Of a stretch of DNA of 64,000 nucleotides, positions 1 to 5,268 are shown in pieces. The notes beneath the pieces are model-generated. The model was not told the DNA's origin. It ran no database searches and worked only from the letters and a program-made list of their open reading frames with translations. The stretch spans positions 81,694 through 145,693 of the forward strand of contig NZ_JAIRAU010000002.1 in assembly GCF_020073745.1 (NCBI RefSeq), written 5' to 3'. Both the position numbers and the translations under genes were made by a program. Source of the DNA: Nannocystis pusilla (GTDB taxonomy: Bacteria > Myxococcota_A > Polyangia > Nannocystales > Nannocystaceae). Within the stretch, counting starts at the first letter, position 1, and the number at the start of each line of letters is the position of its first letter.

Positions 1-1035
1 CGCGAGGTCTGGTTCAAGGGACAGGTGGTCCCCGCAGCCGAGGCGCTGCGCGCGGCCGGCATCCCGCCGCTGACGCTGCAGCCCAAGGAGAGCCTGGCGC
101 TGATGAACGGGACCAGCGTCATGGTCGGGCTCGGTTGCCTGGCGTTCGCCCGCGCGCGGCGGCTGGCGCGCCTGTGCGCGGCGCTGACGGCGATGGGCAG
201 CGACGTCCTGGGCGGCAACCCCGCTCACTTCGACGACCGCATCTTCGCCGCCAAGCCGCACCCGGGTCAGCGGGCCTGCGCGCAGTGGATCCGCGAGGAT
301 ATCGAGTACCCGCGGCCGGCCGCCCCCGCGCGCATCCAGGACCGCTACTCGATCCGCTGCGCGCCGCACGTGATCGGGGTCCTGCTCGACGCGCTACCCT
401 GGGTGCAGCAGTGGCTCGAGATCGAGATCGTCGGCGCCAACGACAACCCGCTGGTCGACCCGGACACCGGCGAGGTGCTGCACGGCGGCAACTTCTACGG
501 CGGCCACGCCTGCTTCGCGCTCGACGCCCTGAAGACGGCGGTGGCCAACCTGGCCGACCTGGTCGATCGCCAGATCGCGCTGGTGTGCAACCCCGACACG
601 AATGCGGGCCTCCCGGCCAACCTGGTCGGGCGCACGGGCCCCGATCGGGCGGCCCACCACGGCTTCAAGGCGATGCAGATCTCGGCGTCGGCGCTGGCGG
701 CCGAGGCGTTGAAGCTGACGATGCCGGCCAGCGTCTTCAGCCGCTCCACCGAATGCCACAACCAGGACAAGGTGAGCATGGGCACGATCGCGGCGCGCGA
801 CTGCCTGCGGATCGTCGAGCTGACCGAGACGGTCGCCGCGATCGGGCTGCTCACGATGTGCCAGGCGGTCGACCTGCGCGCGGGTCACAACGTCCACGCG
901 CGCGCGCGGACGCTCCACGCGGCGGTCCGCGCCGCGGTGCCGATGGTCGACGCCGACCGCCGCCAGGACCACGACATCGCCGCGGTGCTGGGGCTGCTCC
1001 GCGCCGGCGCGCTGCCGATCGGAGCGCTGCCGTGA
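1..1035 (+). CDS. aromatic amino-acid ammonia-lyase (HAL/PAL/TAL family), C-terminal part; 5' end is outside the window
   Basis: Frame-1 reading frame is open from nt 1 with no upstream stop, ending at TGA 1033-1035. Translation carries SLALMNGTS, NDNPL, HGGNFYG and QDRYSIRC motifs typical of HAL/PAL lyases. High GC3. Confidence 0.8.
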   Translation, partial: REVWFKGQVVPAAEALRAAGIPPLTLQPKESLALMNGTSVMVGLGCLAFARARRLARLCAALTAMGSDVLGGNPAHFDDRIFAAKPHPGQRACAQWIREDIEYPRPAAPARIQDRYSIRCAPHVIGVLLDALPWVQQWLEIEIVGANDNPLVDPDTGEVLHGGNFYGGHACFALDALKTAVANLADLVDRQIALVCNPDTNAGLPANLVGRTGPDRAAHHGFKAMQISASALAAEALKLTMPASVFSRSTECHNQDKVSMGTIAARDCLRIVELTETVAAIGLLTMCQAVDLRAGHNVHARARTLHAAVRAAVPMVDADRRQDHDIAAVLGLLRAGALPIGALP

Positions 1036-1436
1036 GCCGCCTGCACGAGGTCTCGGTCGAGTTCGAGGTCCCGTTCCACGACGTCGACATCCTCAATATC
1101 GTCTGGCACGGGCACTACTATAAGTACATGGAGATCGGTCGGACCGCGCTGATGCGCTCGCGCGGGCTCGACATCGCGGACATCCGCCGCGCGGGCTACG
1201 CCCAGCTGCTGGTCGACAGCCACTGCCGCTACACCTACCCGCTGCGCTACGCCGACCGCGCCCGCGTGGACGCGTGGTTCGTGTCGGTGACGCCGCGGCT
1301 GGTCATCGCCTACCGGATCCGCAACCTCAAGGACGACCGCTGCTCGGCCCGCGGGCAGACGATCCTCGTCACGACCGACCATGAAGGTCGCCTCTTGCCG
1401 GAGACGCCCGATGCGCTGCTCAAGTACCTGGTGTAG
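1032..1436 (+). CDS. hotdog-fold acyl-CoA thioesterase (4HBT/YbgC-like)
   Basis: GTG start overlaps the upstream stop (GTGA coupling). 134 aa; N-terminal HDVDILNIVWHGHYYKYME motif of 4-hydroxybenzoyl-CoA thioesterase-like proteins. Confidence 0.75.
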   Translation: MSRLHEVSVEFEVPFHDVDILNIVWHGHYYKYMEIGRTALMRSRGLDIADIRRAGYAQLLVDSHCRYTYPLRYADRARVDAWFVSVTPRLVIAYRIRNLKDDRCSARGQTILVTTDHEGRLLPETPDALLKYLV

Positions 1437-4627: not shown

Positions 4628-5268
4628 ACCTTCGGGCATGGTCGATCGGGCATGTCGTCGGGGCCATGCTCCTGGGGGCATGCTCCAAGGGGCAGCAGGC
4701 CGAGCCGGCGCCGCCGCGGGAGCTGCGCGACGCCGACTACCCGGGGGCGCTGGCGACGACGCTGAGCGGGCCCGACTTCATGGCCCGCCAGCGCCTGCGC
4801 GGCACGGCGCGCGGGCGCGAGATCGGCGGCGAGGTGGTGCTGCAGAAGCAGGGCGACGCGCTGACGCTGGTCGGGCTGACGCCGTTCGCGACCAAGGCGT
4901 TCGTGGCCAGGCAGCAGGGCGCCGAGGTGAAGGTCGAGGTGTTCGCGCCCGAGGGCAAGCTGCCGTTCCCGCCGCGCTTCATGCTGCTCGACGTCCACCG
5001 CGTGCAGTTCCTCGGGCTGCCGGGGGCGCCGCTGGCCGACGGGACGCACGCGGGCGAGGTCGGCGACGAGCGGGTGACCGAGGTGTGGCAGGGCGGGGCG
5101 CTGCTCGAGCGCCGCTTCGAGCGCAAGGACGGCGAGCCGGCCGGCGCGATCGTCATCACCTACGAGGGCGGGATGAAGGACGGGGCGTTGCCGGCGCGCC
5201 TGCGCCTCGACAACGGGTGGTTCGGCTACCAGATCGCGGTCGAGACGCTGCAGTGGCAGCCGCTGTGA
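4624..5268 (+). CDS. DUF3261-like lipoprotein (aryl-polyene cluster accessory)
   Basis: ATGA start/stop overlap with the MMPL gene. Lipobox LLGAC. Gene order MMPL then lipoprotein is typical of APE clusters. Confidence 0.6.
   Translation: MNLRAWSIGHVVGAMLLGACSKGQQAEPAPPRELRDADYPGALATTLSGPDFMARQRLRGTARGREIGGEVVLQKQGDALTLVGLTPFATKAFVARQQGAEVKVEVFAPEGKLPFPPRFMLLDVHRVQFLGLPGAPLADGTHAGEVGDERVTEVWQGGALLERRFERKDGEPAGAIVITYEGGMKDGALPARLRLDNGWFGYQIAVETLQWQPL

Follow-up and report, generated by a model that had tools for sequence, protein, structure and literature searches.

A candidate aryl polyene-type operon without linked ketosynthase genes in Nannocystis

Among the biosynthetic gene clusters (BGCs) of Gram-negative bacteria, the aryl polyene (APE) family is considered the most widespread. 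A stretch of 64,000 nucleotides from the myxobacterium Nannocystis pusilla (contig NZ_JAIRAU010000002.1, positions 81,694 to 145,693; hereafter the window) opens with five genes that a preliminary description took for the tail of an APE- or flexirubin-type pigment cluster, with the polyene-building core expected just upstream. This raises the question of whether these genes belong to such a cluster and, if so, where chain elongation is encoded. Our analysis suggests that window positions 1–5268 are the distal half of a ten-gene Nannocystis operon descended from a canonical APE or APE lipid (APEL) cluster, and that this operon has probably become physically uncoupled from the ketosynthase (KS), chain length factor (CLF), ApeP dehydratase (DH), ApeQ ketoreductase (KR), second KS, second acyl carrier protein (ACP) and PlsC-type acyltransferase of such clusters. 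Pfam matches placed all five genes on the + strand in the order first described (lyase, 4HBT thioesterase, LolA-like protein, MMPL exporter, DUF3261 protein), and a direct read of the sequence confirmed the two reported start–stop overlaps, GTGA at 1032 and ATGA at 4624. Given the high G+C content of the window (72–75%), genes were selected among its open reading frames (ORFs) by the G+C content of third codon positions, which is 0.92–0.97 for the five operon frames. The features of the run are as follows.

1–1035, + strand: aromatic amino-acid ammonia-lyase dependent on 4-methylideneimidazole-5-one (MIO), of the phenylalanine or tyrosine ammonia-lyase (PAL/TAL) type, C-terminal 344 amino acids plus stop (PF00221 Lyase_aromatic, E=1.4e-106)
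1032–1436, + strand: ApeK-like hot-dog thioesterase of the 4HBT/YbgC family, 134 amino acids (4HBT_2 1.2e-12, 4HBT 1.8e-8)
1453–2166, + strand: ApeL-like periplasmic carrier of the LolA family (LolA_3 5.1e-11, LolA 6e-6)
2187–2249, no strand: 14-nt tandem repeat GGACCTGCCTGATG, about 4.5 copies (TRF score 84)
2240–4627, + strand: ApeM-like MMPL/RND (HAE3-type) inner-membrane exporter, 795 amino acids (MMPL 3.2e-11)
4624–5268, + strand: ApeN-like DUF3261 lipoprotein (LolB-like), 214 amino acids, last gene of the operon (DUF3261 4.6e-10)

The ape locus of E. coli CFT073 served as the reference for a protein-by-protein comparison, alongside two canonical myxobacterial APE-type loci that include a lyase, L019 (GCA_038231075.1 JBBRMA010000023.1) and L021 (JGI 3300037422). 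The thioesterase, whose start overlaps the lyase stop at 1032–1035, is 33.6% identical to E. coli ApeK (E=1.5e-21) and 60.6% identical to the L019 thioesterase, and its ratio of nonsynonymous to synonymous substitution rates (dN/dS) against other Nannocystis species is 0.22–0.48. A thioesterase protein identical to that of the window, with a few synonymous differences in its gene, is also encoded on a 1616-bp metagenome contig (ENA ERZ28569464 scaffold_7888, L001), whose flanks are wholly unrelated on both sides and which is probably an assembly chimera. Of the four candidate starts of the LolA-like gene (1381, 1411, 1453 and 1495), 1453 agrees with the orthologs; the protein has a signal peptide, with an N-terminal hydrophobic stretch and an AAA cleavage site, and 23% identity to ApeL (E=3e-11), and its gene is the most relaxed of the run (dN/dS 0.5–0.8). 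The 14-nt repeat occupies the spacer between the LolA-like and MMPL genes and overlaps the MMPL start codon; nucleotide alignments between species are interrupted in this spacer. The MMPL protein is 25% identical to ApeM (E=9e-34) and 49% identical to its L019 counterpart, with matches to HAE3 TIGR00921 (1.8e-24) and HpnN (1.3e-23) that both fall under the equivalog cut-offs; the dN/dS of its gene is 0.31–0.37. Its stop codon is overlapped by the DUF3261 start (4624–4627), and the DUF3261 protein carries a lipobox, LLGA-C (MLLGA-C), so the label ‘lipoprotein’ holds. Its gene has a dN/dS of 0.22–0.55, and its correspondence to ApeN is drawn only from the DUF3261 model and from 47% identity to the DUF3261 protein of L019. 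The resemblance to the ApeK/L/M/N segment of APE clusters that had been noticed earlier is borne out by homology to the E. coli proteins: the export set is present in APE order, and that order is not a matter of chance, being kept in six cultured Nannocystis genomes, in several metagenome-assembled genomes (MAGs) and in E. coli CFT073. A scan for terminators and promoters 3′ of the DUF3261 gene returned nothing, the scan being based on sigma-70 and T-runs and ill-suited to a myxobacterium of 74% G+C.

As the window itself starts inside the lyase gene, the upstream genes were read from relatives. The best homolog of the lyase fragment is in Nannocystis sp. RBIL2 (94% identity), and with the RBIL2 adenylase–DH fusion as anchor, a genome scan gathered loci from the six cultured Nannocystis genomes and MAGs; relatives' loci (the six genomes, L010–L014 and L020) were examined as stretches of ±10 kb. 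Window positions 1–5279 are 97.0% identical in nucleotide sequence to N. radixulma NCELM (L008 14144–19408), and we therefore used L008 1–14143 as the main stand-in for the sequence that precedes the window. There, a plus-strand operon of ten genes runs through an ACP, a protein with five transmembrane helices, a fusion of an AMP-ligase with an ApeI-like DH, a family 2 glycosyltransferase (GT2), a Lip_A_acyltransferase, the lyase, and the 4HBT, LolA, MMPL and DUF3261 genes, and beside it on the minus strand lie a 594-amino-acid protein (unk594) and a FabG-like KR. This ten-gene operon, the divergent KR and unk594 are common to the six cultured Nannocystis genomes, MAGs L010–L013 and the metagenomic locus L020. 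The single ACP of L008 is 53% identical to E. coli ApeE, the adenylase–dehydratase fusion matches ApeH (29%) and ApeI (36%), and the GT2 and the LpxL-type acyltransferase together are 37% identical to ApeJ over 592 amino acids. We considered the five-helix protein (unk216) as a possible novel enzyme and rejected this, as it is a homolog of ApeG (39% identity in L008). The ACP, the ApeH-type loader and the ApeI-type dehydratase were found in N. radixulma and in all other Nannocystis loci, which is proxy evidence for the window strain, and the catalytic motif of the Nannocystis ApeI-like domain, FFRGHF..PVLPGV, is intact. In L005 (N. pusilla Na p29), the GT2 match is split over two frames and the acyltransferase match is shortened (12020–13560), as would result from frameshifts or pseudogenes or from errors of long-read assembly. 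At the other end of the operon, N. radixulma (L008 19395–20560) has an extra ORF for a beta-lactamase-like protein of 384 amino acids with an SIGK motif right after the DUF3261 gene; it is also found in L006 and L009 (N. punicea, N. exedens), and the window, RBIL2, N. pusilla and N. bainbridge lack it.

The Nannocystis operon shares the order ACP-G-H-I-J-K-L-M-N with the apeA–R cluster of E. coli CFT073 and Xenorhabdus doucetiae (PMC8253772; bioRxiv 10.1101/2020.12.19.423268). ApeK, ApeL and ApeM are matched in the window and ApeE, ApeG, ApeH, ApeI and ApeJ in the N. radixulma proxy; the export genes are translationally coupled in both systems, and the Nannocystis genome, too, encodes an ApeB-family methyltransferase. 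These homologies and the conserved E-G-H-I-J-K-L-M-N order indicate that the Nannocystis locus is a genuine relative of APE/APEL clusters. The two systems also differ. In Nannocystis one protein combines ApeH and ApeI, the single ApeJ of E. coli corresponds to separate GT2 and LpxL-type acyltransferase genes, and the KR, encoded divergently, is only 34% identical to ApeQ. The ApeB homolog lies apart from the operon. A MIO ammonia-lyase gene precedes that of the ApeK-like thioesterase, where E. coli instead draws on 4-hydroxybenzoate from UbiC, and the Nannocystis host is a myxobacterium with 74% G+C. Above all, the ApeO/ApeR KS, the ApeC CLF, the ApeP DH, ApeD, ApeF and ApeA of E. coli have no counterpart at the Nannocystis locus. 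The two uncharacterized myxobacterial clusters L019 and L021 are closer: their ACP-to-DUF3261 order is identical, the lyase stands in the same place, and their proteins are 47–71% identical to those of the Nannocystis operon. They keep a PlsC-type acyltransferase, two ACPs and a KS-CLF-ApeP-KR-KS module (with a halogenase in L019), all of which Nannocystis lacks, and they in turn are without an ApeG-like gene and without the divergent pair of KR and unk594.

Where, then, is the elongation core? The core genes that define APE clusters include the ApeO/ApeR KS and the ApeC CLF (Grammbitter et al.). The E. coli locus continues after apeN with apeO-P-Q-R (KS, DH, KR, KS); in L019 the DUF3261 gene is followed by a KS, a Ketoacyl-synt_2 protein (CLF), an ApeP-like DH, a KR, a KS and a halogenase; L021 has the same elongation module after DUF3261 with two genes inserted between; and in L015, which with L016 also counts among the canonical relatives, a KS lies beyond two CsgG-like genes after DUF3261. 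The canonical loci also hold the PlsC-type acyltransferase (ApeD/PlsC is present in L019 and L015 and absent at the Nannocystis loci) and two ACPs. The first description of the five-gene segment as the tail of a cluster is unsupported, since in canonical relatives and in E. coli the KS-CLF-DH-KR-KS genes lie downstream of it. In the window, the DUF3261 gene is followed (5371–7735) by convergent, syntenic non-BGC genes for unk119, unk306, a TPR protein and unk186, and then by a VWA/BatA-like protein. We found no homolog of KS, CLF, ApeP, PlsC or halogenase anywhere in the 64-kb window by tblastn (E<=1), and a hidden Markov model (HMM) built from 120 KS sequences and run with filters off (--max) reached at best 5.7 bits in it; phmmer with CLFs was also negative, and Pfam scans of the large window ORFs showed no KS, CLF or thiolase-fold domain. 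A FAD protein at 17300–19117 was considered as an APE halogenase and rejected, as the L019 halogenase gave no tblastn match to it.

That a complete canonical APE or flexirubin cluster lies here, with its KS/CLF core directly upstream of the window, is hardly credible. The upstream genes of the relatives are indeed of APE type (ACP, adenylase–DH fusion, KR, GT2, acyltransferase), so the expectation of polyene machinery in this place was half right: loading, dehydratase and ketoreductase genes are there by proxy, and condensing enzymes are missing. No KS or CLF was found in the ~14 kb that precede the segment matching the window in N. radixulma, in the loci of the five other Nannocystis genomes, or in L010–L014 and L020. 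Beyond the KR, L008 holds only unk594, a GspC-like protein, an epoxide hydrolase, a LysR regulator and an M16 peptidase, and no fatty acid synthase or polyketide synthase gene. We also asked whether unk594 might be a hidden condensing enzyme and rejected this, as it is a soluble, low-complexity protein with no Pfam or NCBIfam match and no thiolase features. Dedicated KS (ApeO/ApeR) and CLF (ApeC) proteins, as well as ApeP homologs, are thus missing from the window and from the relatives' loci, and the KS module that canonical relatives carry after DUF3261 has no equivalent in that position of the window. The candidate in the ApeQ role is the divergent FabG-like KR, which we considered as a relocated ApeQ; at 34–37% identity, as against 45–70% for the other cluster proteins, this orthology is unsupported.

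The flexirubin half of the earlier assignment fared no better, and these results further weaken the case for a canonical cluster. In the flexirubin clusters of Chitinophaga pinensis and Flavobacterium johnsoniae, the ammonia-lyase FlxA supplies an aryl-acrylate starter (PMC3992019), and LolA-like, exporter, glycosyltransferase, acyltransferase, thioesterase and FlxJ-family methyltransferase genes are gene types shared with Nannocystis. Those clusters, however, have the KS proteins FlxC, I, L, N and O, a stand-alone 4-coumarate-CoA ligase (FlxY) and the dialkylresorcinol genes DarA and DarB. The flexirubin equivalog models were not reached: FlxA_rubin_TAL scored 203 bits with the window fragment and 315 with a full ortholog (cut-off 700), LolA2_flexi 36.6 (cut-off 125) and FlxB 190 (cut-off 340). 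Pfam scans of the large window ORFs and of the relatives' loci, made without DarA/B-sequence probes, likewise showed no KS or thiolase fold that could stand for DarA/DarB or multiple KS proteins.

Loss of the core might mean that the operon is a decaying relic with no current function. The LolA-like gene has relaxed, the GT2 and acyltransferase matches are split in N. pusilla Na p29, and the cluster has wholly gone from around two lone lyases described below. The window ORFs are nevertheless all intact and their translational coupling is retained; the architecture is kept across species whose lyases have diverged to a dS of up to ~0.5; and four of the five genes have a dN/dS of 0.2–0.5. The KS-less operon is kept genus-wide under purifying selection, and we regard decay without function as very unlikely.

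The lyase was predicted to supply the aryl starter, which is plausible for a MIO enzyme. The fragment aligns to positions 152–465 of the 466 positions of the PF00221 profile, and as the match begins at position 152, the window edge cuts the gene at about codon 166. Approximately 165 N-terminal codons fall upstream, among them those for the MIO-forming Ala-Ser-Gly, which orthologs show 16 codons before the window start. The catalytic NGT and YSIRC motifs and the motif-2 ‘NQD’ are all within the window (Gln of motif 2 at nt ~748–783), and with Ala-Ser-Gly from the orthologs, the catalytic Tyr, Arg and Asn and the motif-2 Gln, the protein has the features of a MIO-dependent aromatic ammonia-lyase. 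Its best NCBIfam match is the BagA/FevW TAL and its top match among solved structures is the TAL of Rhodobacter sphaeroides (RsTAL). It does not appear to be a histidine ammonia-lyase (HAL): TIGR01225 (HutH) scores 408 bits with a full-length ortholog against a cut-off of 539, motif 1 reads Phe-His rather than Ser-His, motif 2 has Gln rather than Glu, and there is no hut gene context. At the RsTAL selectivity positions His89-Leu90, the orthologs read Phe-His, an unusual variant of the lyase selectivity switch that is invariant across KS-less and KS-containing loci (including L019 and L021, which also share the Gln). An H89F exchange turns RsTAL toward Phe. The flexirubin enzyme FlxA combines a HAL-like motif 1 with a motif-2 Gln and has been shown to be a strict TAL, and the same study holds that lyase specificity is not predictable from sequence (PMC3992019). 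The lyase is thus of PAL/TAL type, and a preference for Tyr or Phe cannot be called from its sequence. Compared with Nannocystis orthologs, it is 94–99% identical in amino acid sequence, with dN/dS of 0.09–0.25. Lone lyase orthologs with the same Phe-His and Gln motifs occur outside any APE-like cluster in a Nannocystis MAG (L003 10001–11545; 82–87% identity), adjoining an RPE65 oxygenase, and in a Myxococcales MAG (L018 10001–11548; 65–71%), where an ACP remnant lies just upstream.

These findings bear on a further reading, in which the export genes serve a different lipid of the envelope and the lyase chiefly supplies other pathways, such as cinnamate for phenylnannolone-type polyketides, their linkage being historical. 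We consider this improbable. It would account for lyases standing alone in two MAGs, the Phe-derived polyketides of Nannocystis do require a PAL, and the lyase shares with PALs a Phe at the first selectivity position. Against it, the lyase is translationally coupled to the thioesterase by the GTGA overlap, it holds the same place in the KS-containing loci L019, L021 and L015, and the adenylase next to it has 4-coumarate-CoA ligase as its best NCBIfam match.

Taken together with roles proposed for the Ape proteins, the gene content points to a pathway in which the starter, loading, sugar-acylation and export steps have probably been retained and the elongation and second-chain steps lost from the operon. 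The substrate, product, elongation in trans and localization set out here are what we infer from sequence. The lyase would deaminate Tyr or Phe to 4-coumarate or cinnamate, and the ApeH-like domain would adenylate the aryl acid and load it onto the ACP, as ApeH is proposed to load an ACP without a CoA intermediate (PMC8253772; bioRxiv 10.1101/2020.12.19.423268). The thioesterase would proofread or release, the role put forward for ApeK in the same work, where ApeJ is proposed to act with the ApeE-bound chromophore in sugar attachment and acylation, ApeD to transfer a second, conjugated acyl chain, and ApeG/L/M/N to export the product to the outer membrane. By this analogy, the GT2 and the LpxL-type acyltransferase, jointly equivalent to ApeJ, may move the aryl-acyl group from the ACP onto a sugar-phospholipid anchor, and the MMPL pump, the LolA-like carrier and the DUF3261 lipoprotein may bring the lipid to the outer membrane.

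What happens between loading and anchoring depends on whether condensing enzymes act from elsewhere in the genome, and here a methyltransferase gene farther along the window is informative.

20722–21792, + strand: FlxJ/ApeB-family S-adenosylmethionine (SAM)-dependent methyltransferase, 356 amino acids (NF053543, 483.7 bits; Pfam Dimerisation2-like plus Methyltransf_2)

The ApeB/FlxJ family comprises the aryl head-group methyltransferases of the APE and flexirubin pathways. E. coli ApeB matches the window at 20746–21783 with 48.7% identity (E=2.6e-109), and the protein is 49.9% identical to the cluster-linked methyltransferase of L016. On the FlxJ_fam_MTase model NF053543 (cut-off 560), ApeB itself scores 470.4 bits; the window protein scores above ApeB and below the equivalog cut-off, and we therefore assign it to ApeB/FlxJ at the level of the family. 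It sits 15.5 kb downstream of the operon with about twelve unrelated genes between, and an ApeB/FlxJ-family methyltransferase unlinked to the operon suggests that this genome carries its APE pathway genes in dispersed positions. The arylpolyene rule of antiSMASH is KS-based, and a KS-less locus should not trigger a call. Two antiSMASH ‘arylpolyene’ regions are listed for N. exedens ATCC 25963 (PMC4902002, table), and other Nannocystaceae are reported to have canonical APE clusters (PMC6226438). We accordingly give a slight preference to a dispersed pathway, in which KS and CLF proteins encoded elsewhere would extend the ACP-bound aryl-acrylate to a polyene in trans, aided by the DH domain still present and by the neighboring FabG-like KR. 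The insertions in L015 and L021 already part the KS module from DUF3261.

Several observations weigh against elongation in trans. The upstream gene set of the window strain would have to be that of its relatives. No trans-acting APE-type KS or CLF was located in searches that covered the window and the relatives' loci, not a whole Nannocystis genome, and a search with the L015 KS returned no Nannocystis entry among its best 120 matches, which end at ~56% identity and are not decisive (a search with the L021 CLF gave only seven matches, missed the L019 CLF itself, and is too insensitive to count). The adjacent KR is similar to ApeQ only at the level of FabG proteins in general. That the second ACP, the PlsC acyltransferase and the halogenase have been lost together, from both cluster ends, looks more like streamlining than relocation, and a survey of eight Nannocystis genomes by antiSMASH makes no mention of aryl polyenes. 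Finally, a Polyangia MAG (L014, 10001–11821) has a degenerate DH motif and neither a KR nor a KS close by, with the rest of the operon intact, so that in at least one lineage the operon seems to operate with no elongation step.

The alternative is a minimal, non-elongating pathway, run by the operon on its own, that makes no polyene and exports a short coumaroyl or cinnamoyl glyco-phospholipid, possibly ring-methylated, to the outer membrane. In it, the lyase product would be loaded on the single ACP and passed straight to the sugar-lipid anchor by the GT2 and the LpxL-type acyltransferase. This is the main competitor of the dispersed pathway, if a clearly less likely one. It would explain why every elongation and second-chain gene (KS, CLF, ApeP, ApeQ, KS, second ACP, ApeD) has gone while those for the starter, ACP loading, sugar attachment and acylation, and export have all been kept; it fits L014 and the lack of Nannocystis entries among the best 120 KS matches; and the lyase by itself gives one conjugated double bond. 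It leaves the conserved DH His motif and the linked divergent KR of Nannocystis with no obvious role, as neither is needed without condensation, and it sits poorly with the two N. exedens regions and with the ApeB/FlxJ methyltransferase, whose position shows scattered pathway genes. The stronger proposal that such a KS-free, minimized APE-lipid pathway yields a coumaroyl- or cinnamoyl-sugar-phospholipid, ring-methylated by the ApeB/FlxJ enzyme, as a new class of aryl-acyl envelope lipid is more doubtful still.

If the pathway is dispersed, as we tend to think, then APE biosynthesis can run from separate loci, which bears on how BGC boundaries are called in large myxobacterial genomes. If instead it is truncated, the anchoring and export machinery of APE clusters would have been re-used for a shorter aryl-acyl lipid, and ApeG/L/M/N export and ApeJ-type anchoring would work independently of polyene synthesis. 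The operon is also a clean natural setting in which the still poorly understood transport roles of ApeG/K/L/M/N can be told apart from polyene synthesis. Genome mining would miss it, as it has no linked KS or CLF and the rules are, to our knowledge, KS-based.

Other parts of the window hold features of separate interest. Just upstream of the ApeB-like methyltransferase, at ~19100–20325 on the + strand, is a threonyl-tRNA synthetase (TIGR00418, 448 bits) whose alignment starts only at profile position 170; the N-terminal TGS/editing region appears to be missing, and the gene may be a second or truncated copy of thrS. Four large ORFs of 381–454 amino acids on the − strand (40894–47243) have no Pfam match and lie in or beside a dip to ~65% G+C, which may be an acquired island. 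Adjacent + strand genes at 11099–12082 and 12400–13671 encode proteins with the ALK/LTK glycine-rich domain (PF12810) and are followed by two alpha/beta hydrolases. Farther along the + strand, 30699–33305 encodes an 868-amino-acid bacterial protein resembling the major vault protein, with a major-vault-protein shoulder, a Vault_3 repeat and Band_7/SPFH domains, and after it comes a radical SAM enzyme (33492–34820).

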